Assembly (NCBI GenBank): GCA_963719225.1 | Contig: CAVRAY010000002.1 | Location: 495,032 to 559,031 of the forward strand | Direction: 5' to 3' | Length of the DNA: 64,000 nt | DNA from: Thermoanaerobaculia bacterium | Lineage (GTDB): Bacteria > Acidobacteriota > Thermoanaerobaculia > UBA5066 | In this document: positions 29,751 through 64,000 of the stretch, piece by piece | Numbering within the stretch: position 1 is the stretch's first letter | Layout of the letters: every line of letters starts with the position of its first letter | Notes under the pieces: model-generated | Database searches by the model: none | What the model was told of the DNA's origin: nothing | Seen by the model: the letters and a program-made list of their open reading frames with translations, nothing else | Program-made: the position numbers and the translations under genes

Positions 29751-29801
29751 ATGCCCCGCCAAACGCGGTGGACGCGGAATTGCAAGGCTCCCGACCCGCC
29801 C

Positions 29802-31622: not shown

Positions 31623-31690
31623 AGGTTCTCTAACTGTTCGCGCCGCGCAGTCTTGTGTTGGCGGGGATGCCGCCTCCAGCCGCGGCGCGA

Positions 31691-32499: not shown

Positions 32500-32590
32500 A
32501 GTAGCGTGACTTCGGTGATCGAAGCCAAGCGGGGCGGCATGAGGCCGGTTCCTTTGACCGCGCCCTCGTTCCGGCCTACGATTCGAGGTC

Positions 32591-32797: not shown

Positions 32798-32848
32798 GGC
32801 TGCCGCGGGACTGTCTGGTCTCGATCTGGCGACGAGGCTCTTCTCCTA
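32794..32848 (+). pseudogene. Truncated hicA-like toxin remnant
   Basis: An ATGA overlap with the antitoxin stop. MRLPRD then (one frame over) LSGLDLATRLFS* resembles a HicA N-terminus (MKLPRDLSG..). It ends after ~18 codons, just before the nuclease-helicase gene. Confidence 0.4.
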
Positions 32849-32880
32849 GCGGACGTTGACTTGGTCGAGGGGCACCGCTA

Positions 32881-37855: not shown

Positions 37856-37861
37856 AGGCAG

Positions 37862-38287: not shown

Positions 38288-38298
38288 AAGAGAGCCAC

Positions 38299-45832: not shown

Positions 45833-47947
<2,115 letters not shown>

Positions 47948-49245: not shown

Positions 49246-49436
49246 TTGGCGCTCCGCGATGCGGCGCGCTCGCGATGAAGGACGTGTCCTCCTGAGGGCG
49301 GGCACCAGTGTTTCATGCAGGGCCCCTCTTATATCTAACGATACCGAGTTCACCGGGGAGCGCAAGTAGAGTGAACTGCGGGGGTGCACTCCGCAAGGCC
49401 GAGGCGGAGGTTGGGGCCAGAAGGCATAGGCCGCCG

Positions 49437-50262
49437 CGCGTCTGAACAAGTCACAGCCGGCCGTGACGATGACGGTGAAGGCTCTGGAGCGGGAGATGGG
49501 TGTGCCCCTCTTTGCGCGGGAGGGCCGCGGAAAGAGGCTGACGGCGGCGGGAGCGAGGCTGGCCGCGAAGGCCGCGGGCATCCTGGAGGGCGCGCGGCGA
49601 TTGAAGGAGGATGTCGCCGGAGAGCCGGAGGTGCCCCGGGGGCCCGTGCGGGTGGGGGCCGGGGAGGCCGCCATCGTCTACTTCCTGCTTCCGCTTCTTC
49701 GAAGGATTCGCGAGGCGTACCCGTCCCTGGCTCTCGAGGTGCGAAACCAGCGCGACATGGAGTCGTTCGATCAGTTGCTCGCGGGCGAGCTGGACCTGGC
49801 GGTTCGGTCCCGGGAGGCGCTGCCGCACGGTTTGAGGTTCGAGCCGCTGTTCGCGTCGGATCGAATGCTGATCGTGCCGCGTGGTCACGAGCTGGCGGGG
49901 AAGAAGCGCCCGACGCTCAGAGACCTCGCTCGCCATGCGTTCGTGATCCCCCCGGCGGGTTCGACGTCGCGCCGCCTGATCGAGGCCGCGTTCCTGCGGG
50001 CCGGCCTGAGGCTGGAGATCGCGATGGAGGCGGGAGGCTGGGAGATCGTGAAGCGCCTGGTGCGGGCAGGGGTGGGCGTGGCGGTGGTTCCTCGATTCTG
50101 TTGGAGGCTCCTGATCTCAGGAGCGGTGGCGATTCCGGCGGGGCATCTCTTCCCTCCGGATGTCCATGGGCTGGTGACGCGGGAGGGCACCGGCGCCTCA
50201 TCCGCAACGGCCGCCGTGACGCGGGTGCTGGAGGAGGCGGGGAGGAGGGTGGGGTAGGGGGG
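49437..50262 (+). repeat. LysR-type regulator gene fragment, copy A (longest; lacks only the first part of the HTH)
   Basis: It reads AAARLNKSQPAVTMTVKALEREMGVPLFAREGRGKRLTAAGARL...RVLEEAGRRVG* (track ORF 49463..50257), with an in-frame TAG immediately upstream. It ends in GGGTGGGGTAGGGGGG. Confidence 0.85.
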
Positions 50263-50263
50263 C

Positions 50264-50301
50264 TTTACATGACTTGCGAGTATACGCAGAATGCGTATAC
50301 T
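50264..50301 (+). promoter_or_regulatory. Sigma-70-like promoter overlapped by a palindromic operator for higB2/higA2
   Basis: TTTACA (50264-50269), a 17-nt spacer, then CAGAAT (50287-50292). The inverted repeat is AGTATACGC (50279-50287) / GCGTATACT (50293-50301) with a 5-nt spacer. Confidence 0.45.
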
Positions 50302-50652
50302 TTCAGGCGTGAAAGGCGTGTTCGTCGAGCTGCCCGCCTTCGAACGACATCGGACGAATTACCTCGATGACGAGGCGTTCCGGAGCCTCCAGAGCCTTCT
50401 CATGAAGGATCCGTCGGCGGGCGACCCGATCCCGGGGACCGGAGGCCTGCGAAAACTTCGCTTCGCCGATGTGCGGCGGGGAAAAGGAAGCGAGGCGGGC
50501 TCAGGGTGATCTATTACTGGTGGCAGGCCGGGCTGCAGTTCTGGCTCTTCACCATCTACGCCAAGGACGAGATGTCGGACTTGACCGCGGCCCAGCGCGA
50601 AGCGCTGAAGAGAATGATCAAGGCGGAACTGGAAGCAAGGAGAACGTCATGA
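50291..50652 (+). pseudogene. HigB-2-type (RelE/ParE superfamily) toxin, one frame break
   Basis: Track ORF 50291..50509 (..VFVELPAFERHRTNYLDDEAFRSLQSLLMKDPSAGDPIPGTGGLRKLRFADVRRGKG) continues one frame over as KRGGLRVIYYWWQAGLQFWLFTIYAKDEMSDLTAAQREALKRMIKAE. It closely follows the Vibrio HigB-2 pattern. The break is near 50487. The true start is probably GTG 50309 or 50318. Confidence 0.75.
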
Positions 50653-50996
50653 AGATCGAAGGCGGAGGCAGGCGGGCGCGTTCGGGCAAGCGCGACCTGT
50701 TCGTCGAGCTGAGCGAGGGAGTCGCCGCTCTCACCGAAGCGCGTGAGGGGAAGCGGACGCTGCGATCTCACACGGTCGAGTACAAGCCGGCGCCAAAGGT
50801 GACACCACAGGAGTTGATTCGCGTTCGCGAGCACCTGAACCTGTCGCGCGCCCTCTTTGCCGTCTATCTGCGGACCAACGTGCGAACTCTGGAGAACTGG
50901 GAGCAGGGCCGCGCCAAGCCGAATGCGCAGGCGGCTCTTCTGATCAACCTGGTCAAGAAGTACCCGGACACGGTCGAGCGGCTCGCAGCGATCTGA
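50649..50996 (+). CDS. HTH antitoxin (HigA-2-like)
   Basis: In-frame part of track ORF 50469..50996, from an ATG overlapping the toxin stop (ATGA). HTH is LNLSRALFAVYLRTNVRTLENWEQGRAKPNAQAALLINLV. Confidence 0.8.
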   Translation: MKIEGGGRRARSGKRDLFVELSEGVAALTEAREGKRTLRSHTVEYKPAPKVTPQELIRVREHLNLSRALFAVYLRTNVRTLENWEQGRAKPNAQAALLINLVKKYPDTVERLAAI

Positions 50997-51031
50997 TCAG
51001 GAGCCTTAGCCGGTAAGCTTGACCCTGGGCA

Positions 51032-51964
51032 ATGAGCTACGACCTTTTCTTCCGGTTTCGTCCCGGCGCACTTCACGCCTCCGCCAGCGAGATCCTGGAC
51101 TTCTTCAAATCGCGTCCCGGATATGAGTGCTCCGAGACGCAGGCCTGGTACTCGAACGAAACGACGGGCGTCTATTTCTCGTTCGAGATTGAGGAACGGG
51201 GAACTGCGGAAGAGGCGGGCGAGCAGTTCGACGAGGAAGCACCTCCGCCAGATCCTGACGCGGCGCCCGTTTCCTTCAACATCAACTACTACCGCCCGCA
51301 CTTCTTCGGGCTGGAGGCCGAGCCGGAGCTGACGCTGTTCGTGAAGCTCTTCGACCTGCTCGTGTCCGACCCGCAGGTCAGCGGGATGGGCGATGGGGAG
51401 TACACGCCAGAAGGATTCTTGGCGGGCTGGAACGCAGGAAACGTCGTCGGATATCGCGCCGCTGCTGCGTCAATCGAGGACGAAAAACCTCACCTTCTGC
51501 CCACCGCGGTACTGGAGCGGATCTGGCGTTGGAACTACACCCGCCCCAATCGCGCGGAGGCGCTCGGCGAGGAGACATACGTGCCCCGGATCTTCCACTT
51601 CCAGAAAGACGGCCAGCTGCAGTCGGGCATCGTATGGGGCGATGCGATGCCTATCCTGATTCCGCGGGTCGACCTGATCCTTGCCCCTCGCGAAAAACTA
51701 GCCCCTCGCAGGTTCTTCAAGGCGCAAGAGGACAAGGTGCTGTGCACATGGGGCGAGATCGAGCCGCTCCTCACGACGTTTCCTCAGGTGAACGACTATC
51801 TGCCGGCTTGGCGTCTTTCCTATCGGGAGATTCCGCGGGCCATCGAGGCGTTCTTCCGCTCGCATGAGCCGCTCCTTGATACGTCGGCAGGCATGAAGAT
51901 CGTCGCGATGGACCTCGTGCTGAACGCGGAGATCTATGAAGAGGCGCGAAAGCCTCGCACCTAG
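51032..51964 (+). CDS. Hypothetical protein (310 aa), cassette cargo
   Basis: Track ORF with ordinary composition (MSYDLFFRFRPGALHASASEILDFFKSRPGYECSETQAWYSNETTGVYFSFEIEE..). I recognise no family. Its stop abuts LysR fragment B. Confidence 0.5.
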   Translation: MSYDLFFRFRPGALHASASEILDFFKSRPGYECSETQAWYSNETTGVYFSFEIEERGTAEEAGEQFDEEAPPPDPDAAPVSFNINYYRPHFFGLEAEPELTLFVKLFDLLVSDPQVSGMGDGEYTPEGFLAGWNAGNVVGYRAAAASIEDEKPHLLPTAVLERIWRWNYTRPNRAEALGEETYVPRIFHFQKDGQLQSGIVWGDAMPILIPRVDLILAPREKLAPRRFFKAQEDKVLCTWGEIEPLLTTFPQVNDYLPAWRLSYREIPRAIEAFFRSHEPLLDTSAGMKIVAMDLVLNAEIYEEARKPRT

Positions 51965-51965
51965 C

Positions 51966-52493
51966 GGCGTACCCGTCCCTGGCTCTCGAGGTGCGAAACC
52001 AGCGCGACATGGAGTCGTTCGATCAGTTGCTCGCGGGCGAGCTGGACCTGGCGGTTCGGTCCCGGGAGGCGCTGCCGCACGGTTTGAGGTTCGAGCCGCT
52101 GTTCGCGTCGGATCGAATGCTGATCGTGCCGCGTGGTCACCTTAGAAACCCCTCGCTCGCCATGCGTTCGTGATCCCCCCGGCGGGTTCGACGTCGCGCC
52201 GCCTGATCGAGGCCGCGTTCCTGCGGGCCGGCCTGAGGCTGGAGATCGCGATGGAGGCGGGAGGCTGGGAGATCGTGAAGCGCCTGGTGCGGGCGGGGGT
52301 GGGCGTGGCGGTGGTTCCTCGATTCTGTCTGGAGGCTGCTGATCTCAGGAAGCTGGTGGCGATTCCGGCGGGGCATCTCTTCCCTCCGGATGCTTATGGG
52401 CTGGTGACGCGGGCGGGCACCGGCGCCTCATCCGCAACGGCCGCCGTGACGCGGTTGCTAGAGGAGGCGGGGAGGAGGGTGGGGTAGGGGGGG
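51966..52493 (+). repeat. LysR gene fragment, copy B
   Basis: It starts at ..AYPSLALEVRNQRDMES... It carries a 27-nt deletion plus a small indel after PRGH (GGTCACCTTAGAAACCCCTCGC). It ends ..LLEEAGRRVG* GGGTGGGGTAGGGG. Confidence 0.85.
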
Positions 52494-52498
52494 CGGGG

Positions 52499-52810
52499 CT
52501 ATCTGGCCACGGCCCGGGCGATCTCTCGAGGCCGTTTCCCGGTGGCGAGAAGCGACCGAACGATGAGATCGAGGCTGACCTGCGCGTCAGCGGCCTCCAT
52601 CTTCGCGACTCGGGACTGGCTCGAGCCCAGCTTCGAGGCGAGCGCCGTCTGGGACAGCCCCTTCTTCAAGCGCGCCTTCTTGAGTTCGCGAGCGAGGCTG
52701 AGCTTGATCTCGATGTAGGCCGATTCCTCGGGGGTCAGGCCGAGGAAGGTCTCGGCGGATCCGAATGTCCAGCCCTTCTTCGTGAGGCGAGCCTTCTTCG
52801 TCTTGTCCAT
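52499..52810 (-). CDS. higA: XRE-family HTH antitoxin (HigA-like)
   Basis: Track ORF: LSQTALASKLGSSQSRVAKMEAADAQVSLDLIVRSL. Confidence 0.8.
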   Translation of the reverse strand: MDKTKKARLTKKGWTFGSAETFLGLTPEESAYIEIKLSLARELKKARLKKGLSQTALASKLGSSQSRVAKMEAADAQVSLDLIVRSLLATGKRPREIARAVAR

Positions 52811-52814
52811 CTGA

Positions 52815-53147
52815 TTACTCCCTGTCCCATGCCGCGAGGCGCTGCGCGCAGGCGGCGATCACGGCTTTCGGCGTGCGTTGAGTGCCCTTCTTCTCGACTC
52901 CCAGTACCACGATCGCGTCATGCCGAACTGCATAGAAGATCCGCCAGTCGACGTTCCCGTCGGGCACTCGGAGCTCGTGGCAACCCTTCCCGATCCCCGG
53001 CATCGGTCGAGAATCCGGCAGCGAAAGCACGTCCCCCTGCTGAAGGCCCCTCAAGAGGTATCCGGCACGAACCCGCCCCTCCTTCGAAAAGGGCGGAGAC
53101 TTGATTCCACCGTGCATCCACGCGAGGGGTTTCTCGGGGAGCTTCAT
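52815..53147 (-). CDS. higB: HigB / Gp49-like RelE-superfamily toxin (intact)
   Basis: Track ORF: KPLAWMHGGIKSPPFSKEGRVRAGYLLRGLQQGD..PMPGIGKGCHELRVPDGNVDWRIFYAVRHDAIVVLGVEKKGTQRTP. Confidence 0.8.
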   Translation of the reverse strand: MKLPEKPLAWMHGGIKSPPFSKEGRVRAGYLLRGLQQGDVLSLPDSRPMPGIGKGCHELRVPDGNVDWRIFYAVRHDAIVVLGVEKKGTQRTPKAVIAACAQRLAAWDRE

Positions 53148-53181
53148 TTCACCCGGAACGAGATTAGGGTGATTAGTGGTC

Positions 53182-53199
53182 TATGTCAAGACTGACATA
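53182..53199. promoter_or_regulatory. Inverted repeat upstream of the higBA operon (candidate operator)
   Basis: TATGTCA (53182-53188), AGAC, TGACATA (53193-53199). It lies 35-52 nt upstream of the higB start on the minus strand and abuts LysR fragment C. Confidence 0.3.
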
Positions 53200-53200
53200 T

Positions 53201-53539
53201 GTCCCCGGAGGTGCTGCCGCACGGTTTGAGGTTCGAGCCGCTGTTCGCGTCGGATCGAATGCTGATCGTGCCGCGTGGTCACGAGCTGGCGGGGAAGAAG
53301 CGCCCGACCCTCAGAGACCTCGCTCGCCATGGGTTCGTGATCCCCCCGGCGGGTTCGACGTCGCGCCGCCTGATCGAGGCCGCGTTCCTGCGGGCCGGCC
53401 TGAGGCTGGAGATCGCGATGGAGGCGGGAGGCTGGAGATCGTGAAGCGCCTGGTGCGGGCAGGGGTGGGCGTGGCGGTGGTTCCTCGGCCGCCGTGAGGA
53501 GGGTGCTGGAGGAGGCGGGGAGGAGGGTGGGGTAGGGGT
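53201..53539 (+). repeat. LysR gene fragment, copy C
   Basis: It starts near ..EVLPHGLRFEPLFASDRMLIVPRGHELAGKKRPTLRDLARH... It has a 1-nt deletion after EAGGW and a large deletion (..VAVVPR|AAVRRVLEEAGRRVG*). The 3' end is the same as in the other copies. Confidence 0.85.
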
Positions 53540-53544
53540 GGCTG

Positions 53545-53757
53545 TTAGGCGTAGGCGAGGCGGCCGCGGGCCTCGGGAATGGGTCGCCCGAGCGACTTTG
53601 CGGTCTCGATCCACTCGCGAATGACTACCTCGGCGGCCGCGAGAGCCTCGGCGTAGGACGCACCATCGGCCATGCAGCCCGGCAGCTCGGGAACCTCGGC
53701 GACGAACGCCTCGTCCTCTTTGCTCCAGTAGATGATGACTTCGTACTTGGGGCTCAT
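53545..53757 (-). CDS. hicB: HicB antitoxin
   Basis: Track ORF: YEVIIYWSKEDEAFVAEVPELPGCMADGASYAEALAAAEVVIREWIETAKSLGRPIPE. Confidence 0.85.
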   Translation of the reverse strand: MSPKYEVIIYWSKEDEAFVAEVPELPGCMADGASYAEALAAAEVVIREWIETAKSLGRPIPEARGRLAYA

Positions 53758-54008
53758 AGCGCACCTGAAAGTTTATACCGGACGAGAATCGATCGCACCT
53801 GCTTGACCTGATAAGGCTTAGCTTTCGAACCCTTGGGCTGAATGTTGAGGATCTCGACGACCCCGTCCTTCGTGAAGATGTGATGGCTGCCTCGGGTGCG
53901 ACTCTCGAACCCGAGTTCCTCGAGGAGAGCGCAGAGATCTGAGAAGCGGATGTTTGCGTCCGAGGCTCCGGTCAGGATCTGCTCCAGAAGCCGGCTGTGC
54001 CGAGTCAC
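53754..54008 (-). CDS. hicA: HicA mRNA-interferase toxin
   Basis: Track ORF with GTG start: LLEELGFESRTRGSHHIFTKDG..ILNIQPKGSKAKPYQVKQV. It overlaps hicB by 4 nt. Confidence 0.85.
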   Translation of the reverse strand: MTRHSRLLEQILTGASDANIRFSDLCALLEELGFESRTRGSHHIFTKDGVVEILNIQPKGSKAKPYQVKQVRSILVRYKLSGAL

Positions 54009-54113
54009 GGGAGAACGCTAGCACGCCGAGCGACTCGCGAGCCGGCGCCGGAGGGGCTGGACTTGCCCCGATTTCGGGCGATAGGATTTGCCTCGCCAAC
54101 CGGGGGTACATCG

Positions 54114-55970
54114 ATGACGCGGTCGCTCATATCGGCCTTGGCTTCGCTTCTCCTCGCAGTGGATGTCCGGGCGGCCGACCCCCGCTGGACGGTCGAATTC
54201 AAGGAAGGCGCGCGCACCTTCCTCACGGCGACGGGCCTCGAGGTCGGACAGAAGACAACTCCGGGCGCGACGATCGCGGGATACCTCGTCGTCAAGCTGC
54301 CAGCCGACGTCGACCCCGCCACCACGAACCGCGGCGTGTTTCTCGGCCGCGTGCGTGTGCCCGAGCGGCGTGTCACTTGGCTGAAAGGGGACGAGTTTGC
54401 GGCCGGTGCGCTGCTGCCCGCGCAGCACCTCATCGCCGTCACTCCCAACGCCGGCTTCGAGCCCGGGTTGTGGGCGGTGAAGGTCCGCGACACCGTCAAG
54501 GACCGCAACGGGCGCCCGGTCAATCCCACGAACGCCACGTGGACGGTCGAGATCGGGGAACCGCGTGTACGGCCGGACGAAAGCGGCCCGGCTCGTAACA
54601 CGCTGAAGCTGAAGTTCACGACCGAGGTCGATCCGGCGACGTACGCGGACGGGATCGTCGTGGAGAAGCAGGTCGCGGGAGGCTGGGAGGAGGAGCCGCG
54701 GGGCAGCGCGACGATCGCGCCGCGGGAGCACGGCGGGTCGGTCAACGAGATCGGTCTCCGGCCCCTCGGCGGGTGGGAACGTGGGGCGACGTACCGCGTG
54801 CGCGTCACGGAGGCAATCCGCGACCTTCGTGGGCTCCCCCTGACGAACGCCGAAGACTTCAGCTTTGTTGTGCCGAAGTCCGGGCCGTTCGACACGCGTC
54901 ACGAGCCGCGGCGGCCGGTGGCGCAGGCGAGTGCACAGGCGGCCTCTGCAGGGCCGGCGTTCCCGGGCGGGCAGGCGCTGGGCTGGCACGGGCACTGGAC
55001 CGACCCCGTCACCGGGCTCATCTACATGCGCCACCGCTGGTACGACCCGCGGACGGGGACGTTCCTGTCGCCGGATCCGCTCGAAGACATCGACTCGCCG
55101 AACCAGTACCTGTTCGGCGCGGGCAGGCCGCACGAGGTGGTGGATCCGCTGGGGCTGTGTCTAGGTCTGGACAAGGAAGGGCGCCCCTGCGGTTACTACG
55201 CTGACAGGATCGACGACTACCTAGTCGAGACGGCGAAGCTGCGAAGAGACCGAACCGGGGTTCCACTGGCCCTCGATCGTCTGCTGCTCAGTCCGGTCAC
55301 GGGGATTCTGCGACTCGGCGAGGCGCAGGGTCGACTCGGCTATCGATACGCCGAGGCTTTGACCAATCCCAGGGTCGCCCTGCCGCCAGGCGCGACCGTC
55401 ACGAGCGAGACGAACGAGGTCGGAGCCGACCTGCTTCAGGCTGCCGGCGACGCAGCGCTGCTGGCGCCGCTGACGAGGGGCCTGGTTGGCATGCGCACCG
55501 CTGCCTCGCCTGCCGCTTTAGTCCCCATTGCGGAGTCGATGCGTCCGTCTCTGCCGGTGCTGAACCCGCATTTCACCCCCGACCCAAAGGCGGTGTTGCA
55601 GAACCTGGCCACCTTCCAGAACGCACGGCTTGCTGCGAATCCGGCGCTCGCAGAAACGGTCCTGACACGCCCGGAGTACGCTGCCGCCACGAAGAACATC
55701 GGCATCGCGCGGATGGAGTGGGGGAACGCGGTTGAACGGCTAATGGCGGGAGAGGTTCGTGAGCAGCCCTCACTCAGATCTATGTTCGAACACCAGGGCG
55801 GACCAAACAGGCCAGATTTCATAGGAAGAGGCGCCTTCGATGGGCTGAAATTCGAGGTGACGACACCCGGACAAGTACGGGCGCACTTGGCTCGGCCCCG
55901 ATACGGACTAGGATTGAATGTAGTCACCTACCAGAGGCCCGCGGGCTTTACTCTATTCCCGCCACAATGA
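54114..55970 (+). CDS. Secreted polymorphic toxin: signal peptide + Ig-like (SbsA-type) region + terminal RHS-core motif + unique C-terminal toxin domain
   Basis: Track ORF 53997..55970 trimmed to MTRSLISALASLLLAVDVRAA. The RHS core end is GWHGHWTDPVTGLIYMRHRWYDPRTGTFLSPDPLEDIDSPNQYLFGAGRPHEVVDPLGL (ends 55157). A 270-aa CT follows, containing GGPNRPDFIGRGAFDGLKFEVTT (PD..E-x-T, possibly REase-like). Confidence 0.75.
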   Translation: MTRSLISALASLLLAVDVRAADPRWTVEFKEGARTFLTATGLEVGQKTTPGATIAGYLVVKLPADVDPATTNRGVFLGRVRVPERRVTWLKGDEFAAGALLPAQHLIAVTPNAGFEPGLWAVKVRDTVKDRNGRPVNPTNATWTVEIGEPRVRPDESGPARNTLKLKFTTEVDPATYADGIVVEKQVAGGWEEEPRGSATIAPREHGGSVNEIGLRPLGGWERGATYRVRVTEAIRDLRGLPLTNAEDFSFVVPKSGPFDTRHEPRRPVAQASAQAASAGPAFPGGQALGWHGHWTDPVTGLIYMRHRWYDPRTGTFLSPDPLEDIDSPNQYLFGAGRPHEVVDPLGLCLGLDKEGRPCGYYADRIDDYLVETAKLRRDRTGVPLALDRLLLSPVTGILRLGEAQGRLGYRYAEALTNPRVALPPGATVTSETNEVGADLLQAAGDAALLAPLTRGLVGMRTAASPAALVPIAESMRPSLPVLNPHFTPDPKAVLQNLATFQNARLAANPALAETVLTRPEYAAATKNIGIARMEWGNAVERLMAGEVREQPSLRSMFEHQGGPNRPDFIGRGAFDGLKFEVTTPGQVRAHLARPRYGLGLNVVTYQRPAGFTLFPPQ

Positions 55971-56659
55971 GGGTATTCGAAGGGCGCGAATTTCGTTCCT
56001 TTTACGACGATGGGGACTCGCTCTTCGAGGACATCGAGTTCCGGCGATGCTCCTTCATCAGTTCGGCGATCTCGATCACGAGAAACCCCGGTCGAAGGTC
56101 GACGGCTCGACGTTGTCGTGTCATTTCGTGTGAACAGCGAGGGTGCGCGATCGATACAGCCGTCCTTGAGGATGTGCTCGTGGACGGATTTCTCACGCAT
56201 GGCCTCTTGCAGACTTGGGGGGCCGTCTTCAAGCACGTCACGCTTCGGGGCCGGATGGGGCGAATCATGACGAGTGACCGCATCGCTACGGGCACCGCTA
56301 CGGCTGCCGAGCAGAGCGCCTTCGATGAAGCGAACGCTGCCTACTACGCCGCTGTCGATTGGGCCCTGGACCTGCGCGAGGCGGAGTTCACAGACGAACC
56401 GGACTTCAGGGGCATCCCCGCGAGGCTTGTCATCCGAGACCCTGATTCACAGGTTGTGGTGACGCGAGAGAGGGCGATGCAGGGGACGTGGAGGCAGGTC
56501 GACCTCTCGGGCACCTCCTGGGAGGCGTACATCCAGGGAATGCTGAGGGACGGCTATCCCGACGTCATCCTCGTCGCACCTAAGCGGAGTCGGAAGTTCC
56601 GGGACCTGCTCAATGGGCTCATGAGACTGAAAGACGCCGGCGTTACGGAACCGTATTGA
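55967..56659 (+). CDS. Putative immunity protein (position-based)
   Basis: Track ORF. Its ATG overlaps the toxin stop (ATGA). I recognise no family. Confidence 0.45.
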   Translation: MRVFEGREFRSFYDDGDSLFEDIEFRRCSFISSAISITRNPGRRSTARRCRVISCEQRGCAIDTAVLEDVLVDGFLTHGLLQTWGAVFKHVTLRGRMGRIMTSDRIATGTATAAEQSAFDEANAAYYAAVDWALDLREAEFTDEPDFRGIPARLVIRDPDSQVVVTRERAMQGTWRQVDLSGTSWEAYIQGMLRDGYPDVILVAPKRSRKFRDLLNGLMRLKDAGVTEPY

Positions 56660-57057
56660 TGGCATCGAGGATCATCGCGCACCGTGTGGAACTGCCGGGA
56701 GAAGGAATCCACGAAGTCTCCCTCGAGGCCTCGGACCACGGCCTTGTCATCGACGTCAACGCATCCACGGCCTACCACTACATCACGAACCGGGACTTCT
56801 CCGAGATCTTCGACGCACTGCACCTATACGATCGCGGCACCGCTGATGAGCTTCAGGGCGGAGAGTCAGCGTTCGTCGTGTGGTCGCCCGAACTCCAACG
56901 AGCCGGCGTCTTCTATCGGGGCAGGTTTCAGGCCGCTGTGGACTTTGAACGACACGAGGCGCGCTGCCGCAGCGGGTTTCCGACGTTGCCAAACACTCCG
57001 TGGCTTCGATCGGGCCACGGGTGGGACGATGAGCTCGTAAAGGGGCTGGAACCCTGA
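56659..57057 (+). CDS. Hypothetical small protein in toxin cassette
   Basis: Track ORF 56656..57057. An ATG at 56659 overlaps the upstream stop (TGATG). The sequence reads MASRIIAHRVELPGEGIHEVSLEASDHGLVIDVN... Confidence 0.4.
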   Translation: MASRIIAHRVELPGEGIHEVSLEASDHGLVIDVNASTAYHYITNRDFSEIFDALHLYDRGTADELQGGESAFVVWSPELQRAGVFYRGRFQAAVDFERHEARCRSGFPTLPNTPWLRSGHGWDDELVKGLEP

Positions 57058-57082
57058 ATTTACAGACCCCCAGCAGGCCTGC

Positions 57083-57922
57083 GTGGCTCAGTCTAGATCC
57101 GCTCTTCACGAAATGAACGGTCTGACGGATCTCGGCGCCTCCATCGCGATGAATGGCACGCCGGCCGTGCAGCAGGTCAGATTTCCCGGAAGGTTTCGTT
57201 GGACCAGGCGGCTGAACGTAAACCGCTTGTTTGACGACGTGGACCTTGGTGATGTGCATGGCCGCCCACGGCTCTGGGGCCATGTCTCATTTGAAGGCTG
57301 TGCCTTTCGGGGCGTGACGCTGGACGGGGCGCGGCTCGAACGAGCGTCGTTCACGGGATGCCGATTTGAGCGTGTCAGATTCGGGCATCGCCTGATGGGG
57401 CTTATCAAAGGCTGTACGTTTGAGCACTCGACGTTCTCGGAGGTGGCGTTCGGTGGGGCCCAGATCATTGATTCCGGCTTTGCGTCATGCGAATTTGACC
57501 GAGTGGATGCGAGAGACCTCATGTTTCGGCAGACTCATATTCAGGGGCTCACGCTATCTGGCAACGTTTCGTCCTGCAACTTAGTCGACTGCACTGTGTC
57601 GGAGCTCGACGCCGGCAGAGCCTACGTTGAAGACCTCGGAATCGTCGGGGGCAGCCTGAGGGACGTGACTTGGCCGCACCACGACTCGAACTTCGCGGTA
57701 GCCCCGTCCTCATTGATCGAGGTAATGGCAGAGGTGGAGCCGAAGCTCCGATTGGAGTCCCGGGCCCGCTACGAGGAAATGGCGCGTCTGTATTCCGCGT
57801 CATCGAGTCCGGTCGTGATGATTGCGAAGTCGGGCGTTAGGGAAATGACTGACGTGGAGTCGGACGCGGTCATAGGGGCTCTTCGGCGTTTCGGAGTCTC
57901 AAAGTCACCCGAGCCCAAGTGA
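57083..57922 (+). CDS. Pentapeptide-repeat protein
   Basis: Track ORF. It has a run of A(D/N)LxX-type quintets: FEGCAFRGVTLDGARLERASFTGCRFERVRFGH..CTFEHSTFSEVAFGGAQIIDSGFASCEFDRVDARDLMFRQTHIQGLTLSGN. The start is uncertain (GTG 57083 or ATG 57113). Confidence 0.6.
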   Translation: MAQSRSALHEMNGLTDLGASIAMNGTPAVQQVRFPGRFRWTRRLNVNRLFDDVDLGDVHGRPRLWGHVSFEGCAFRGVTLDGARLERASFTGCRFERVRFGHRLMGLIKGCTFEHSTFSEVAFGGAQIIDSGFASCEFDRVDARDLMFRQTHIQGLTLSGNVSSCNLVDCTVSELDAGRAYVEDLGIVGGSLRDVTWPHHDSNFAVAPSSLIEVMAEVEPKLRLESRARYEEMARLYSASSSPVVMIAKSGVREMTDVESDAVIGALRRFGVSKSPEPK

Positions 57923-58028
57923 CGAAGCCAAACGTTCTCACGCAGCACGTTTTCGCGTGCCTTATGCCGACGCCTGGACTCGTTGCGCTGCGCTCCGATT
58001 TCCGTTCTTGTCCGACGTGAAGACGATC

Positions 58029-58826
58029 CGCGTCTGAACAAGTCACAGCCGGCCGTGACGATGACGGTGAAGGCTCTGGAGCGGGAGATGGGTGTGCCCC
58101 TCTTTGCGCGGGGGCCGCGGAAAGAGGCTGACGGCGGCGGGAGCGAGGCTGGCCGCGAGGGCCGCGGGCATCCTGGAGGGCGCGCGGCGATTGAAGGAGG
58201 ATGTCGCCGGAGAGCCGGAGGTGCCCCGGGGGCCCGTGCGGGTGGGGGCCGGGGAGGGGGACTCGGATTCGCGAGGCGTACCCGTCCCTGGCTCTCGAGG
58301 TGCGAAACCAGCGCGACATGGAGTCGTTCGATCAGTTGCTCGCGGGCGAGCTGGACCTGGCGGTTCGGTCCCGGGAGGCGCTGCCGCACGGTTTGAGGTT
58401 CGAGCCGCTGTTCGCGTCGGATCGAATGCTGATCGTGCCGCGTGGTCACGAGCTGGCGGGGAAGAAGCGCCCGACGCTCAGAGACCTCGCTCGCCATGCG
58501 TTCGTGATCCCCCCGGCGGGTTCGACGTCGCGCCGCCTGATCGAGGCCGCGTTCCTGCGGGCCGGCCTGAGGCTGGAGATCGCGATGGAAGCGGGAGGCT
58601 GGGAGATCGTGCAGCGCCTGGTGCGGGCAGGGGTGGGCGTGGCGGTGGTTCCTCGATTCTGTCTGGAGGCTGCTGATCTCAGGAAACTGGTGGCGATTCC
58701 GGCGGGGCATCTCTTGCCTCCGGATGTCCATGGGCTGGTGACGCGGGAGGGCACCGGCGCCTCATCCGCAACGGCCGCGGTGAGGAGGGTGCTGGAGGAG
58801 GCGGGGAGGAGGGTGGGGTAGGGGGG
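58029..58826 (+). repeat. LysR gene fragment, copy D
   Basis: The 5' boundary is the same as in copy A (CGCGTCTGAACAAGTCACAGCC). It has a 1-nt frameshift after PLFAR and a ~36-nt deletion (..GAGE|..IREAYPSLALE). It ends ..RRVLEEAGRRVG* GGGTGGGGTAGGGGGG. Confidence 0.85.
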
Positions 58827-58878
58827 AAGCTAAGCGACTTGATAGATGGCGGGCTTGAAGGACGGGGGCGGTATGGTC

Positions 58879-59226
58879 TTACCCGCCTCCACCCTTGGAC
58901 AAGAGTTCCTTGACGGCTGCCTCGAGGCCCGGCAACTCTTCGTTAACCGCCTGCCAGACGATGTCGAGATCGGCGACGAAGTACTGGTGCGCGAGGACGT
59001 CGCGCATTCGGGCAAACCCACGCCAGTCGACAGCGGGATGGCGCTCCGTGAGTGCCTCCGGGAGCTTCTTGATGGCTTCCCCGATGACCCCGAGGTTGTG
59101 GAGGACGGCGTCGCGCGTGCGCACGTCGGAATCGAGCGTCTGCCGCGACGCGCCCGCGAGGTAGGTCCGCACGCGGGTTGCGGCCTCGAGGATGTCCTCC
59201 AGGTAGAGCCTAAAGTCCCGGGACAT
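58879..59226 (-). CDS. hepT: HepT (DUF86) RNase toxin
   Basis: Track ORF. R-x4-H-x-Y motif is RDVLAHQYF. Confidence 0.85.
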   Translation of the reverse strand: MSRDFRLYLEDILEAATRVRTYLAGASRQTLDSDVRTRDAVLHNLGVIGEAIKKLPEALTERHPAVDWRGFARMRDVLAHQYFVADLDIVWQAVNEELPGLEAAVKELLSKGGGG

Positions 59227-59539
59227 CCTGGGCTTCTGCGAGGACCCTCTCGCGAACGAGGGGCCTGATCGTCTCGCGGATCACGAGGTCCACCTTGTGT
59301 CCGAGCAGTTTCTCGAGGAAGTCTGCGAGGCCCATGTAGTTCCGGAACGTCTTCCTGTCGAAGTCGACGAGGAAGTCGAGATCGCTCTCGGGCCGCGCCT
59401 CACCTCGAACGGTCGAACCGAACAATGAAAGCCGCCGGACGCCAAAGGCCTTTAGCGCACCGACCTCACCCGCAAGGGCAGTAAGGACGTCCTCGGCGCG
59501 GAGCGCTTGGTGGTGGGGCCGATGGGCTATGGTACGCAT
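59210..59539 (-). CDS. mntA: MNT nucleotidyltransferase antitoxin
   Basis: Track ORF 59210..59731 trimmed to MRTIAHRP... The NTase motif is LSLFGSTVRGEARPESDLDFLVDF. Confidence 0.8.
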   Translation of the reverse strand: MRTIAHRPHHQALRAEDVLTALAGEVGALKAFGVRRLSLFGSTVRGEARPESDLDFLVDFDRKTFRNYMGLADFLEKLLGHKVDLVIRETIRPLVRERVLAEAQDVPGL

Positions 59540-59627
59540 GGCTGGCCGATTATCGCTCTCCGGCCGAGGGTCTGGACTTGCCCTGATTTCAAGCGATAGG
59601 ATTTGCCCCGCCACCGGGGGTACATCG

Positions 59628-61185
59628 ATGAAGCGGTCGCTCATATCGGCCTTGGCTTCGCTTCTCCTCACGGTAGACGTCCGGGCGGCCGAGCCTCGCT
59701 GGACGGTCGAATTCAAGGAAGGCGCGCACACATTCCTGACGGCGACGGGCCTCGAGGTCGGGCAGAAGACAAGTCCCGGGGCGATCGCGGGTTACCTCGT
59801 CATCAGGCTTCCCGCCGACGTCGACCCCGCCACGACAAATCGCGGGATCTTTCTCGGTCGCGTGCGTGTGCCCGAGCGCCGGGTCACGTGGCTGAAGGAG
59901 GACGCAGTAAAGGTGCGCGACACGGTCAAGGACCGCAGCGGGCGCCCGATCAACCCCACGAACGCTACGTGGACGGTCGAGATCGGGGAGCCTCGCGCGC
60001 GTCCGAACGACTCCGGTCCGGCGCGCAACACCCTCAAATTGAAGTTCACGACCGAGGTCGACCCGGCGACGTACGCGGACGGGATCGTCGTGGAGAAACA
60101 GGTCGCGAGCGGGTGGGAAGAGGAGCCGCGGGGCAGCGCGACGATCGCACCGAGCGCGCACGGCGGCTCGGTTAACGATATCGGACTCCGGCCGCTGGGC
60201 GGATGGGAGCGCGGCTCGACGTACCGCGTGCGCGTCACGGAGGCGATCCGCGACGTGCGCGGACAGCCGCTGACGAACGCCGAGGACTTCAGCTTCACCG
60301 TGCCGAAGTCCGGGCCGTTCGACACGCGCCACGAGCCGAAGCGGCCCGTGGCGCAGGCGAGCGCACAGGCGGCATCAGCAGGGCCGGCGTTCCCGGGCGG
60401 GCAGGCGCTCGGGTGGCACGGGCACTGGACGGACCCCGTCACCGGCCTGATCTACATGCGCCACCGCTGGTACGACCCGCGGACGGGGACGTTCCTCTCG
60501 CCGGACCCGCTGGAGGACATCGACTGGCCGAACCAGTACCTGTTCGGAGCGGGTAGGCCGCACGAAGTGGTGGATCCGCTGGGGCTGGCGGTGACGGTGA
60601 AGTGGGAGAAAGGCGTTCTCTGCAGGGGCTGTCTGACGTTTGGCGCCGACCTCGGGTTGACGATGGGAGGAACCGGAGTTCCAGTTCGCAAAGGACGTGG
60701 CCGGTGTCTATCTGCCCCGTCTCTTCGCCAGGCCGCGGCCTCGGGTTGCCACAGCCGGTGTCAGAGGTTCGGCCCCGATTGGTCCGGTGGGTCCGGTTCA
60801 GGCACTCGAGCCGGGGCAATGGGTGAGAGCCAGCGAGTCCATGAGTGCACGCGCTGCGGCCTACCAAACGCAGATCTCTGGCCGGGCCGCCGGTGAGGTC
60901 TACCTGGTGGACGGAGTGAATTTCGATGCATTTCGCGGCGGAACGCTCCTCGACGCGAAGGGCCCGGGCTATGCGACCTTTACGAAAGACGGACGCTTTC
61001 GGGAGTTCTTTCAGGGTGCCGAGGATCTGCTTAGCCAGGCGGCTCGACAGGTGCGGGCCGCTGGCAAGACATCCATCGAATGGCATGTCGCCGAAAGGGA
61101 GGCCGCCGACGCCATCACGACGTTGTTGCGTGAGGCGGGCTATTCTTCTCGGATCAATGTTGTCTTCACACCTCCAGTGCCGTGA
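59628..61185 (+). pseudogene. Paralogous RHS-end polymorphic toxin with Tox-REase-5-like C-terminal domain, one frame break
   Basis: Track ORF 59529..60896 trimmed to MKRSLISALASLLLTVDVRAA. It is near-identical to 54114.. up to ..PHEVVDPLGL (ends 60587). The CT continues in track ORF 60697..61185 (ARAAAYQTQISGRAAGEVYLVDGVNFDAFRGGTLLDAKGPGYATF), the pattern I associate with Tox-REase-5. The break is near 60668. Confidence 0.7.
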
Positions 61186-61910
61186 TGGCGGATAGCTTCG
61201 TTGTCGGCGCCTACTGGGGGAGCCGGTCGGAGATGCCGGAGGGCTGCGCACAAAGGCTGAATCAACTGCTCGCCGGGCTGAAGTCCCTGGACCCGGTGTT
61301 TGCTGGATGGTTCGCAAAAGGGCCTTCTGCGGGAATAGACCGAACAAAGAATCTCTCGCCCGCGGACATCAATGATCTCGCTATGCGTGGAGTGAATCGG
61401 CGCGACCTCGGCGCCTCGCCCATCCCTGCGCTTGGCGTGCGAATCGGAGTTTGGAACGGCGGCCGCGAGGGAACGACCGCGGTGGGCATCAGCACGCGCT
61501 GTGGCTCCTTCGATGAGTCCGGCGGCGTGCCGGCCTTGAACTCACTTCTCATCAGCCTGCCGAATCAAGGCCCGGACGCCGATCGCATTCTCAACATCGA
61601 GGCACTTGAAGAAATGCTCGAAGTGGTCGTTCGCGCCTACGACCCGGACTGGGCGGTCGTGGCATCACGAGAACACATGAAGCTGTGGCCTTCTGGTCCT
61701 GAGGGCGGGCCCCACGCGGGCTGGATCACATATCTGTCCAGACGAAATAGAGAAGCGACGTTGGCGGCCAACGGTTTGGCCCTGAAACGCCTTGAGTTCG
61801 CTGCTTTCGGGACAGCCTGGGTCACGACGGAGGAGAGGTTTTCTCTTAGCAACCCCACTCACATCGCACAGGGGCGCGTGTTGGAACAAGCCATCAGCCG
61901 AAGACCGTAG
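61185..61910 (+). CDS. Putative immunity protein (Imm52-like by position)
   Basis: Track ORF 61182..61910. Its ATG overlaps the toxin stop (TGATG). Tox-REase-5 toxins are classically followed by Imm52. The family call is tentative. Confidence 0.55.
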   Translation: MADSFVVGAYWGSRSEMPEGCAQRLNQLLAGLKSLDPVFAGWFAKGPSAGIDRTKNLSPADINDLAMRGVNRRDLGASPIPALGVRIGVWNGGREGTTAVGISTRCGSFDESGGVPALNSLLISLPNQGPDADRILNIEALEEMLEVVVRAYDPDWAVVASREHMKLWPSGPEGGPHAGWITYLSRRNREATLAANGLALKRLEFAAFGTAWVTTEERFSLSNPTHIAQGRVLEQAISRRP

Positions 61911-61956
61911 ACGAATGTAGTGTCACCCGACCAGTCTCACTGCGGGTGTGTGCAGC

Positions 61957-62621
61957 GCTCTGGAGCGGGAGATGGGTGTGTCCCTCTTCGCGCGGGAGGG
62001 TCGCGGAAAGAGGCTGACGGCGGCGGGAGCGAGGCTGGCCGCGAAGGCCGCGGGCATCCCGGAGGGCGCGCGGCGATTGAAGGAGGATGTCGCCGGAGAG
62101 CCGGAGGTGCCCCGGGGGCCGGTGCGGGTGGGGGCCGGCGAGGCCGCCATCGTCTACTTCCTGCTTCCGCTTCTTCGACGGATTCGCGAGGCGTACCCGT
62201 CCCTGGCTCTCGAGGTGCGAAACCAGCGCGACATGGAGTCGTTCGATCAGTTGCTCGCGGGCGAGCTGGACCTGGCGGTTCGGTCCCGGGAGGCGCTGCC
62301 GCACGGTTTGAGGTTCGAGCCGCTGTTCGCGTCGGATCGAATGCTGATCGTGCCGCGTGGTCACGAGCTGGCGGGGAAGAAGCGCCCGACGCTCAGAGAC
62401 CTCGCTCGCCATGCGTTCGTGATCCCCCCGGCGGGTTCGACGTCGCGCCGCCTGATCGAGGCCGCGTTCCTGCGGGCCGGCCTGAGGCTGGAGATCGCGA
62501 TGGAGGCGGGAGGCTGGATGTCCATGGGCTGGTGACGCGGGAGGGCACCGCCGCCTCATCCGCAACGGCCGCCGTGAGGAGGGTGCTGGAGGAGGCGGGG
62601 AGGAGGGTGGGGTAGGGGGGG
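61957..62621 (+). repeat. LysR gene fragment, copy E
   Basis: It starts at ..ALEREMGVSLFAREGRGKRLTAAG... It has a large deletion after EAGGW, joining to DVHGLVTREGT.. (..GGCTGG|ATGTCCATGGG). The 3' end is the same as in the other copies. Confidence 0.85.
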
Positions 62622-62650
62622 ACCCACCTACGCCACGATAGAATGCTCGA

Positions 62651-62896
62651 GTGAGCCGAGACCCGCTGCTCGCCAGAATCACGCTGGACCCCAAGGTCAT
62701 GGTGGGGCAACCCGTGGTCCGTGGCACGCGCCTGACCGTCTCCTTCATCCTGGGCCGTCTCGCCCACGGATCCGCGGTGGAGGACCTGCTGAGCGAGTAT
62801 CGCGGGCTGACCCAGGAAGACGTTCAGGCCTGCCTGCTCTTCGCTGCGGAAGCGGTGGGCGACAACACCTTCGCCCCCCTCGCCAACGCGAAGTAA
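62651..62896 (+). CDS. DUF433 antitoxin-like protein
   Basis: Track ORF: ITLDPKVMVGQPVVRGTRLTVSFILGRLAHGSAVEDLLSEYRGLTQEDVQACLLFA. Confidence 0.8.
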   Translation: MSRDPLLARITLDPKVMVGQPVVRGTRLTVSFILGRLAHGSAVEDLLSEYRGLTQEDVQACLLFAAEAVGDNTFAPLANAK

Positions 62897-63080
62897 GTGC
62901 GTTTTCTCGTCGACGAATCGACGGGGCCTGACGTGGCGCGGTGGCTTCGAGCGCCCGGCAAACAAGAAGGCGGTTCTGGAGAGGCTCCTTCAGGGGCACG
63001 GTAAGGACATTCCCGGCAGTTTCGTCGTCGTGTCGGAGGACACCGTGAGGATCACGCGGTTCTCGGGTGGCGGGAGCTGA
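62897..63080 (+). pseudogene. DUF5615 (PIN-like) toxin with internal deletion
   Basis: GTG 62897 gives VRFLVDESTGPDVARWLRA (N-terminus). After a junction, a different frame gives NKKAVLERLLQGHGKDIPGSFVVVSEDTVRITR (C-terminus). The catalytic middle is missing. Confidence 0.55.
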
Positions 63081-63402
63081 GGCGTACCCGTCCCTGGCTC
63101 TCGAGGTGCGAAACCAGCGCGACATGGAGTCGTTCGATCAGCTGCTCGCGGGCGAGCTGGACCTCGCGGTTCGGTCCCGGGAGGCGCTGCCGCACGGTTT
63201 GAGGTTCGAGCCGCTGTTCGCGTCGGATCGAATGCTGATCGTGCCGCGTGGTCACCTCAGAAACCCCTCGCTCGCCATGCGTTCGTGATCCCCCCGGCGG
63301 CTGTCCATGGGCTGGTGACGCAGGAGGGCACCGGCGCCTCATCCGCAACGGCCGCCGTGAGAAGGGTGCTGGAGGAGGCGGGGAGGAGGGTGGGGTAGGG
63401 GG
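63079..63402 (+). repeat. LysR gene fragment, copy F
   Basis: The 5' boundary (GAGGCGTACCC) and the 27-nt deletion are the same as in copy B. There is a further large deletion (..CCGGCGG|CTGTCCATGGG). The 3' end is the same as in the other copies. Confidence 0.85.
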
Positions 63403-63417
63403 TAACATTCTGAAGGT

Positions 63418-63741
63418 ATGAGCCCCGCGCAAGTGCTTTCAAGCGGACGGATTACGGTGCCTCGGGAGGCCATTGCGGGCTTCTGCCGGAAGCACCACAT
63501 CCGGCGGCTGGCTCTGTTCGGGTCGGTGCTTCGAGACGACTTTCGAGGTGACAGCGACGTGGACGTCCTGGTCGAGTTCGAACCCACCCACGTTCCCGGG
63601 TTCTTCGGGCTTTTCGGAATGGAGCAGGAGCTTGGGGAGATCGTCGGCCGCAAGGTGGACCTGAACACGCCGGGCTCGCTGAGCAAGTACTTCCGGGCCC
63701 GGGTATTGGCCGAGGCCGTGCCGCTGCATGACGCGGCATGA
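63418..63741 (+). CDS. mntA: MNT nucleotidyltransferase antitoxin
   Basis: Track ORF: [24 protein letters not shown]. Confidence 0.85.
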
Positions 63742-64000
63742 CGAGGACGCGCGCCTCCGGCACATGCTGGACGCTTCGCGCGAGGCCGTCGGCTTCGCGA
63801 AAGGGAGATCGAGAGCAGACCTGCACGCCGACCGCGGCTTGCAGCTGATTCTCACGAGGCTTCTCGAAATTGTCGGCGAGGCGGCGAACAAGGTGCCGCA
63901 GGCGACACGCGACCTCTACCCTGAGATTCCCTGGTCGGCCGCGATCGCGATCCGAAACCGCCTGATCCACGGCTACGAGGACGTCGACCTCGACATCGTC
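63728..64000 (+). CDS. hepT: HepT (DUF86) toxin, 3' end beyond window
   Basis: Own translation from ATG 63728, overlapping mnt by 14 nt: [76 protein letters not shown] (R-x4-H-x-Y motif). It is not in the track because no stop lies inside the window. Confidence 0.8.

Follow-up and report, generated by a model that had tools for sequence, protein, structure and literature searches.

The window analysed here, a 64,000 nt stretch of contig CAVRAY010000002.1 from a Thermoanaerobaculia bacterium (assembly GCA_963719225.1), contains an array of toxin-antitoxin (TA) modules punctuated by co-oriented fragments of a single LysR-type regulator gene, hereafter lysR. This array is real, widespread and reshuffled between relatives, and is not an artefact of assembly. 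We give an even chance to the reading that it is a sedentary chromosomal cassette array stockpiling self-promoted TA modules, in which the 3' end of lysR (the tail) is the point of insertion and recombination, and in which a position-specific step is combined with RecA-type shuffling. Beyond TA modules, the cargo includes some polymorphic toxin/immunity and defence genes. The host is an uncultured Acidobacteriota lineage, with its closest relatives amongst metagenome-assembled genomes (MAGs) of Acidobacteriota and Thermoanaerobaculia.

Self-comparison by BLASTN with copy A, a repeat finder and a MAFFT alignment with a full-length relative (the 'reference', on which all lysR positions are numbered) identified one LysR gene represented by six plus strand copies between 49428 and 63402:

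49428-50262, plus strand: fragment A, reference 60-894, the copy at the head of the array in the window
51966-52492, plus strand: fragment B, reference 346-894
53201-53540, plus strand: fragment C, reference 439-726 joined to 840-894, lacking 727-839
58029-58826, plus strand: fragment D, reference 69-894
61957-62620, plus strand: fragment E, reference 113-673 joined to 790-894, having the common 674-789 deletion
63079-63402, plus strand: fragment F, reference 344-590 joined to 789-893, lacking approximately 591-788 and also having a 25 nt deletion

The coordinates in the initial annotation, made from the sequence alone, match these almost exactly, the homology of copy A starting 9 nt before the 49437 given there. 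The other five copies are 87-99% identical to copy A (BLASTN), and the six 5' ends fall at reference positions 60 (A), 346 (B), 439 (C), 69 (D), 113 (E) and 344 (F). A 20-mer from the end of the tail, GGAGGAGGGTGGGGTAGGGG, has six exact occurrences, all on the plus strand, where 0.02 would be expected by chance. The similarity stops directly past the stop codon, with TAGGGG and 0-2 further G residues preceding the divergence; the common 3' end claimed for the copies is therefore the same in 6/6 in the MAFFT alignment. When translated, the copies match a LysR regulator (Pfam LysR_substrate, 4e-43), with HTH_1 in copy A matched only from profile position 22, as this fragment lacks the first ~20 codons of the helix-turn-helix. 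Copy A had been thought the only one free of deletions and frameshifts; however, the alignment reveals a compensated -1/-2 frameshift that affects ~9 codons close to the 3' terminus. All six copies are thus truncated or frameshifted, none being an uninterrupted open reading frame (ORF) with both HTH_1 and LysR_substrate domains, and the window contains no functional LysR of this type, as had been proposed.

An intact copy of this lysR was not found amongst 5.8 billion proteins either: everything that matches at 70% identity or more is a fragment, and full-length LysR homologues reach only 43-48% at best. The sole locus with the lysR start codon, L001, has a 31 nt deletion that is common to array fragments in L061 and L062. 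Judged on these comparisons, lysR survives only as a relic, which bears out the view that the repeats are fragments of one LysR gene, the functional copy being absent from all databases searched.

A scan of one genome per species detected close relatives of the repeat in only three Acidobacteriota MAGs, whilst a scan of metagenomes with the C-terminal part found approximately 20 further contigs; one more array, L132, came from an exact-protein look-up. The same kind of look-up with three proteins of the window, intended to reach sequence past 64000, matched no record. With the reference mapped onto all loci, there are 22, including the window, that have 2-8 lysR fragments each, always co-oriented and with no inverted copy, and these fragments almost always reach reference 892-894. 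The heads of the arrays are either copies truncated at reference 60-62 (window copy A, L094 and L132) or stubs of ~75 nt (L036 and L061), with no intact lysR at the head of any array. Of the 127 ORFs called in the cassettes, which form 75 clusters, 45 representatives were assigned, nearly all to TA families, with AbiEi/Eii, Phd/ParE and Fic also present.

The assemblies containing these arrays are independent in project and assembler (SPAdes NODE, JGI, ENA and Microflora-Danica-type MAG contigs), and in one of them, L036, the left chromosomal flank of the window is found at 75-95% identity, yet next to a different, shorter array. Both the recurrence of the architecture and this shared flank with another array demonstrate that the array is biological and polymorphic. 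It is scarcely credible that the assembly has concatenated strain variants of a single lysR-plus-downstream locus: many short-read contigs do break inside the repeats, so these sequences confuse assemblers, but multi-fragment arrays are found in independent assemblies made by different methods, the fragments within one array differ in their 5' ends and deletions, as variants of one locus would not, and the arrays have unique chromosomal flanks. The comparison of relatives suggested with the initial annotation therefore reveals both cassette number and cassette order to vary, which excludes an invariant single-copy locus as well as a chimeric assembly.

Across the loci, 45 lysR tails, all on one strand, adjoin at least 21 different cassette types. 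These tails end ...GGGTGGGGTAGGGG just past the stop codon, followed by 0-4 extra G residues and then a cassette start, of which at least 21 are known that bear no relation to one another. The junction reads GGGGTAGGGG, with the cassette beginning directly after; its start is often a reverse-strand stop codon or promoter, 0-20 nt from the tail, and TA genes lie 0-50 nt from the tail in both gene orientations. That insertion takes place at one fixed point, the lysR 3' end, as first suggested on the basis of the window, is thus evident from at least 21 cassette types that start at the same nucleotide after TAGGGG, and it is from this fixed junction that we infer a position-specific step.

The tail, designated U, comprises at least the last ~30-75 nt of lysR, and usually the last 105 nt, ending ...GGAGGAGGCGGGGAGGAGGGTGGGGTAGGGG. 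Whilst the 3' end of the fragments is fixed, the 5' end is ragged, giving lengths of ~30-835 nt: 5' ends are found between reference 60 and 864, in clusters at 60-69, 329-346, 412-418, 437-445 and 817-824, without an obvious common motif. In four upstream contexts, the starts of the longest copies lie no more than 10 nt apart (reference 60-69, ...GCCGCCGCGCGTCTGAAC), at 49428 and 58029 in the window, 4868 in L094 and 9879 in L132. The shortest regular remnants start at reference 817-824, hence ~75 nt is the smallest unit regularly kept. Most copies lack reference 674-789 (e.g. window 62517/62516; L036 8357-8376; L055, L062 and L098), and further nested deletions are present. This loss of ~115 nt has at least seven slightly different junctions, including GGCT/GGATG, GGAGG/CCGGATG and GGCTGGGA/GTCC (the slash marking the join), a pattern suggestive of a hotspot where deletions recur, or else of one site being repaired again and again.

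Several simple origins for the fragments were rejected. All internal breakpoints are deletions, with no duplication, which is inconsistent with composite fragments being illegitimate joins of two independent ends. Insertion of a tail plus cassette into lysR at random positions was discarded, as successive fragments overlap rather than being consecutive pieces, and 5' truncated LINE-like retro-copies were discarded on the absence of target site duplications and the lack of matches between spacers. The repeat has no match in the plasmid, phage and viral collections PLSDB, INPHARED and IMG/VR, and consequently was not considered part of a plasmid, phage or known insertion sequence (IS).

The mobile unit was defined from the linkage of those cassette families that recur in at least two loci. 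Their junction with the right-hand fragment is common to 11/19 pairs, a 12th differing only by a later internal deletion, whereas the left-hand fragment is in common in 0/9 comparisons, the next cassette in 0/4 and the previous cassette in 0/2. Given these figures, with neighbours shared in 0/6 cases overall, the assorting unit is the cassette with the junction to its right-hand fragment; cassettes assort independently between genomes, in the manner of an integron cassette with its attC site. The difference between L061 and L036 is exactly one such unit of cassette and fragment, inserted after a tail. Hence the DNA between fragments does behave as cassettes, recurring in different orders. A strictly serial model, in which each arrival displaced the previous copy, had been put forward as the simplest history of the locus; this predicts that all DNA to the right of a cassette is inherited along with it, and is not supported, given the lack of shared next (0/4) or previous (0/2) cassettes and of an intact gene at the head.

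In the window, the spacers between fragments, with ORF families assigned through Pfam and NCBIfam, are as follows:

50263-51965: cassette c1, a composite of two units
approximately 50291-50653: c1, HigB2-like toxin pseudogene with a frameshift near 50489, intact in L060
50646-50996: c1, MqsA/HTH-type antitoxin, the TA unit ending at ~51006
51032-51964: c1, 310 aa ORF, the second unit, without a family match
52493-53200, minus strand: cassette c2, HTH antitoxin (52499-52810) and Gp49/HigB-type toxin (52815-53147)
53541-58028: cassette c3, a composite
53545-53757, minus strand: c3, HicB
53754-54008, minus strand: c3, HicA
53997-55970, plus strand: c3, secreted polymorphic toxin with Big_5 and Rhs_assc_core domains
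55967-56659: c3, 230 aa ORF
56656-57057: c3, DUF2251 protein
57083-57922: c3, pentapeptide-repeat protein
58827-61956: cassette c4, a composite, the first unit ending near 59556
58879-59226, minus strand: c4, HepT
59210 to approximately 59542, minus strand: c4, MNT
59529-60896: c4, toxin with Big_5 and Rhs_assc_core domains
60697-61185: c4, Tox-REase-5 domain, in a frame shifted relative to its toxin
61182-61910: c4, Imm52
62621-63078, plus strand: cassette c5, DUF433 antitoxin (62651-62896) and DUF5615/PIN toxin remnant (62893-63080)
63403-64000, plus strand: cassette c6, MNT (63418-63741) and HepT, starting at ~63728 and extending past the end of the window

The predicted TA pairs recognised amongst these are Gp49/HTH, HicA/HicB, HepT/MNT (twice) and DUF433/DUF5615, with an MqsA-like antitoxin adjoining the HigB2-like toxin, and a palindromic operator/promoter, CTATGTCAAGACTGACATA, at the right edge of c2. 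Such gene content is as originally listed, except that two of the toxins are broken by decay, the HigB2-like toxin of c1 through a frameshift and the DUF5615/PIN toxin of c5 through an internal deletion in which ~190 nt were lost; across the arrays, deletions and frameshifts erode lysR fragments and toxin genes alike.

Cassettes are commonly ~0.5-0.7 kb, whilst units range from 0.45 to 4.5 kb, the longer cassettes being composites of a TA unit at the tail and then a separate cargo unit. The TA unit of c1 is found alone in L094, with the composite present in L060, and the HepT/MNT unit of c4 is found alone in L055; when alone in other loci, both keep the same right ends. The c6 cassette is also present in L055, L063, L098 and L052. 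A TA unit does adjoin the tail, as stated in the initial annotation, but a cassette may be more than a single TA module: in c1, c3 and c4 the TA unit is combined with a distinct cargo unit, and both are known alone elsewhere. The two secreted toxins with Big_5 and Rhs_assc_core domains in c3 and c4 are 85-92% identical in their 5' parts (54046-54773 and 59561-60203), diverging past a ...VVDPLGL motif, and so represent a miniature polymorphic toxin pair nested within the lysR-punctuated array.

The right ends of TA units are discrete: that of higB2A2 is at 51006 in three contexts, that of hepT/mnt near 59556 in two, that of higBA at ...GACATAG in four, and that of the hicAB family at ...CTAGCACGC in three, with no conserved motif seen at cassette right ends. 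For several TA units, the same right end is joined, at 90-95% identity, to different lysR positions in different loci, indicating that junctions are also remade or eroded. The fragments themselves have exchanged sequence. Four loci that have the same cassette and the same junction at reference 416 contain different internal lysR alleles, one of them having the 25 nt deletion of fragments B and F, an allele also found in L122 and L055; the 29 nt indel allele of fragment D is likewise present in L094, L055, L056 and L092. A variant private to the window, GAGGAGGGTGC, is common to fragments C-F whatever the adjoining cassettes. Fragments are therefore allelic mosaics, undergoing concerted evolution by gene conversion or crossing-over, and these mosaic alleles and array-specific variants reveal that homologous exchange acts on the fragments. 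The 5' ends described as ragged in the initial annotation do differ, but they are not all independent, the fragments having been homogenised within arrays and eroded by recurrent deletions.

Homologous recombination might even be sufficient to generate the arrays. Circular or ends-in linear DNA composed of a lysR tail, a cassette and a lysR fragment, arriving via transformation or produced through excision between direct repeats, would integrate Campbell-style into resident copies and duplicate the shared segment; no dedicated recombinase would be involved, and the sharp 3' boundary would be a vestige of one ancestral end of homology, at the stop codon, that selection on a then intact lysR had maintained. 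The gene conversion and mosaicism amongst fragments are directly visible, repeats of 70-830 nt are long enough for RecA, the cassette with its right-hand fragment is the exact product of excision between direct repeats, tail variants are array-specific, no recombinase lies near any array scanned, and the Rhs and CDI orphan arrays are a precedent for maintenance by homology (PMC3967940). However, homology moves existing junctions, and cannot create at least 21 unrelated starts at the same nucleotide after TAGGGG; nor is the discrete right end of one TA unit joined to different lysR positions a Campbell product, and selection would have no intact gene at the head to act on, with none on a LysR protein now. 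We regard homologous recombination alone as less likely than the layered reading, but as a serious rival to it.

The search for an enzyme that could make the junctions used Pfam scans of the ORFs upstream in the window and in the flanks of L036, L055 and L094, and precomputed Pfam matches for L132, and only IS transposases turned up. No integrase or transposase families were found amongst the scanned ORFs of 49-64 kb, none of the scanned ORFs matched a Y2_Tnp or HUH family, and no recombinase family was present amongst the 45 cassette protein representatives, within the 25 most frequent of the 35 matched Pfam families. In the five loci covered (the upstream side of the window, L036, L055, L094 and L132), no intI adjoins the array, and between 49301 and 64000 neither strand contains an integron-type R''...R' pair (RYYYAAC...GTTRRRY within 45-150 nt; 0 found). 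The array is thus free of a visible integrase, attC or transposase, as had been stated from the sequence, although an IS3-family element lies just upstream at 45833-47022.

These observations also bear on whether this is an ordinary integron array, either a sedentary chromosomal integron or a CALIN, with the integrase outside the window. Compact cassettes, many TA modules, repeats that are homogeneous within a genome and defence cargo are all features of integrons (PMC4889954, PMC13108822, 10.1101/2024.07.02.601686), but the missing R''...R' pairs across 49.3-64 kb, a junction of TAGGGG/ rather than G/TTRRRY, the lack of a supported hairpin, repeats that are pieces of coding sequence up to 835 nt long and the absence of intI next to the array head or tail in the five loci make it highly improbable. 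The integron was accordingly rejected as a candidate, for want of attC boxes, a supported hairpin and, in the Pfam scans, intI.

The array lies inside a block of low GC content (58-66%, compared to ~70% further left), which constitutes a defence island composed, from left to right, of WYL and Mokosh-like helicase genes, a Mza system, an IS3 element, REase-like and TIR-like genes and then copy A. The first of these comprises a WYL/WCX protein and a 1105 aa protein that combines RNase_H_2 with an SF1 helicase and has weak MkoA/MkoC matches (window 29682-36240), and is the left flank kept in the Thermoanaerobaculia MAG locus L036 (2161-6992); in L061, only a piece of the WYL gene is left beside the array head. 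Between the conserved helicase flank and the array is a Mza-type defence system (36268-45490), which is absent from L036 despite the same flank:

36268-37005 and 37481-37855: Dcm methylase, split
37862-38287: Vsr
within 36268-45490: MzaB/HATPase, MzaC/Z1 and MzaD/DUF4420
43421-44644 and 44807-45490: MzaE/AIPR, split

The IS3-family element (45833-47022), 2.4 kb upstream of copy A, has an HTH_Tnp_1 orfA and an orfB that matches only the first part of the rve core. It contains the IS3 ALIL frameshift pseudoknot RF01497 (46111-46227, 94.5 bits), besides which no other known RNAs were found in 36-64 kb (Rfam, E<=1). Directly upstream of the array head are ORFs at 47093-47947 and 48035-48760 with no Pfam match; in PADLOC, the first resembles a type II restriction enzyme model (2e-15) and the second a TIR effector model (4e-06), and the pair have the look of defence genes rather than of recombinases. 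Further addiction-type genes are found outside the array: a Doc/Fic-family gene at 26900-27292, a Gp49-domain ORF with an HTH partner at 27289-28649, and a Fic_N/Fic/HTH protein at 18609-19769. At the left-hand end of the window, a gene for a bacterial alpha-2-macroglobulin of ~2500 aa (738-8213) is overlapped by a giant ORF without a family match (6437-14308), both within 735-14308 on the minus strand. In L094, just beyond the distal end of the array (16694-20116), is a gene encoding a 1141 aa fusion of Topoisom_bac with a RecQ helicase (DEAD, Helicase_C, RecQ_Zn_bind and HRDC domains), probably a chromosomal gene; G-rich structures are amongst the substrates of RecQ helicases.

The nearest intact LysR homologues (L133 and L134) are divergent from an HD_4 gene, and the DNA downstream of them is variable and defence-type, including a Mza-like cluster; from this, the ancestral lysR probably bordered a variable region. 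Such a setting could be compatible with the remains of larger integrative elements, of the kind seen as SCC at rlmH or as islands at tRNA genes and icd. These would have integrated site-specifically at the 3' end of lysR, each bringing a replacement lysR 3' end, and would have accumulated in tandem before deletions reduced them to their addictive TA modules and removed their integrases. This would account for the boundary at the stop codon, the ragged, element-specific 5' ends, the co-orientation and the tandem accretion, deletional decay is rampant in the arrays, and the nearest intact homologues have just such a variable defence region immediately downstream. We nevertheless consider it improbable: there is no integrase remnant amongst the 45 representatives of cassette ORFs or in any flank, the cassettes are uniformly small, single cassettes move between arrays, and TA genes 0-50 nt from the tail in both orientations are unexpected from random decay.

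Under the layered reading that we favour, the last ~30-100 nt of lysR would be a fixed site of insertion and recombination. New units would enter immediately 3' of a resident tail, bringing with them, or duplicating, a variable length of upstream lysR. The junction-making step would be the work of a recombinase or nickase that acts in trans from another locus and is orientation-specific, resembling either that of integrons or the rolling-circle, ISCR type, whilst RecA-type exchange between repeats of 0.07-0.8 kb would shuffle, delete and homogenise units. TA addiction would retain the modules as non-essential DNA around them is trimmed, and it is through this addiction that they may persist. 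More tentatively, and with rather less than an even chance of being correct, the lysR tail can be proposed as the attachment site of a new, non-integron cassette-capture system, in which an enzyme supplied in trans and specific to one strand (an HUH nickase, or a recombinase of the tyrosine or serine type) would both insert and excise the TA module and its lysR fragment immediately 3' of ...GGGGTAGGGG. An Acidobacteriota lineage would thereby possess a 'superintegron' of its own for addiction and defence modules.

A number of observations weigh against a position-specific step of this type. Neither the scanned cassette ORFs nor the 49 kb upstream of the window array nor the flanks of L036, L055, L094 and L132 yielded the recombinase it calls for, and the model offers no explanation for the first junction of a new cassette to a tail. 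The right-hand junction differs between loci for several cassette families at 90-95% identity, hence the cassette and right-hand fragment are not a rigid unit; furthermore, tail variants follow the host array, rather than the left or right cassette, so that a simple site-specific model needs gene conversion to be added. The tail also lacks the dyad symmetry typical of tyrosine recombinase core sites. In the window (50233-50262 and the five further tails), its last 22 nt, GGGGAGGAGGGTGGGGTAGGGG, conform to a canonical plus strand G-quadruplex (GGGG-N-GGG-N-GGGG-N-GGGG), but about a third of tails in other loci have the motif broken, with GGAAGG in place of the second G-tract, and it was discarded as the functional core. 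Single-sequence DNA folds gave a candidate hairpin in the tail, GCCTCATCCGCAAC...GTTGCTGGAGGAGGC; this was also set aside, as RNAalifold found no compensatory pairs (0) in 26 distinct tails and supported an alternative fold equally, and the hairpin is weakened in window fragments C-F and absent in some remnants.

In function, the array is closest to sedentary chromosomal integrons, whilst in form it is closest to Rhs/CDI orphan arrays and to tandem accretion at a gene's 3' end. Sedentary integrons such as the Vibrio superintegron likewise have a long co-oriented array of compact cassettes, a repeat homogeneous within the genome, self-promoted TA cassettes in either orientation together with defence-type cargo, shuffling between relatives, and a 3' side repeat that travels with the cassette (PMC4889954, PMC13108822, PMC12614218). 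Compact, independently assorting cassettes with a 3' repeat are found here too, as judged from the right (11/19) and left (0/9) junctions. However, the lysR-tail arrays lack intI and attI in the loci scanned, and their repeat is not attC, having no R''/R' boxes and a different junction, but a relic of coding sequence of variable length (30-835 nt).

Rhs, CdiA and MafB orphan arrays also consist of co-oriented, 5' truncated fragments of one gene that share an end point and have different DNA after each, and it is known that homologous recombination between fragments rearranges those of the Rhs and CDI systems (PMC3967940). Two genuine Rhs-core toxin/immunity units are, in addition, carried as cargo in the window. 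In contrast to these systems, the lysR fragments end at their own TAG stop codon, the cassettes are separate TA operons with their own promoters rather than translational fusions, there is no protein-level constraint to explain the sharp junction, and no intact main gene is present at the head of the arrays.

SCC elements, at rlmH (orfX), and islands at tRNA, tmRNA and icd genes insert at the fixed 3' end of a target, copies of the target terminus punctuating elements in tandem, and those that lack a recombinase of their own are open to mobilisation in trans. The repeats of such elements are short (~15-165 nt) and of fixed length, the elements extend over kilobases to tens of kilobases, and at least some of them carry an integrase or ccr. 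In the lysR-tail array, too, insertion is at the 3' terminus of a gene, with tail copies as punctuation, but the array differs in having units of 0.45-4.5 kb that encode no recombinase, repeats of ~30-835 nt and a dead target gene. ISCR complex class 1 integrons contain 5' truncated partial copies of an upstream conserved segment after the variable region, attributed to rolling-circle capture and then homologous recombination. In ISCR1/IS91-type elements, one precisely fixed end next to many unrelated downstream genes is again observed, oriIS of ISCR1 adjoining 93 gene groups with spacers of 0-1211 bp (PMC6218425); however, their conserved segment contains an HUH transposase gene, whereas here it is a LysR relic (HTH_1 and LysR_substrate) and no HUH/Y2 protein is encoded by the scanned ORFs.

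Full-text literature searches, including one aimed at such arrays, found no published description of a lysR-tail cassette array, in agreement with the initial annotation. To our knowledge, integrons are the only well-understood machines for stockpiling and shuffling small gene cassettes; a second, unrelated route to cassette arrays would widen the view of how genes for addiction, defence and antagonism are banked. The array would also represent pseudogene sequence kept at 95-99% identity across species purely as a recombination substrate. As a simple handle, the sequence tag GGAGGCGGGGAGGAGGGTGGGGTAGGGG may allow many compact TA and defence modules to be harvested from metagenomes of soil and sediment. 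A dedicated enzyme, should there be one, would be a new site-specific tool with a G-rich target of ~30-75 nt; if there is none, this would be a natural, homology-driven cassette system stabilised by TA addiction, bearing on the unsolved origin of integron-like cassettes.

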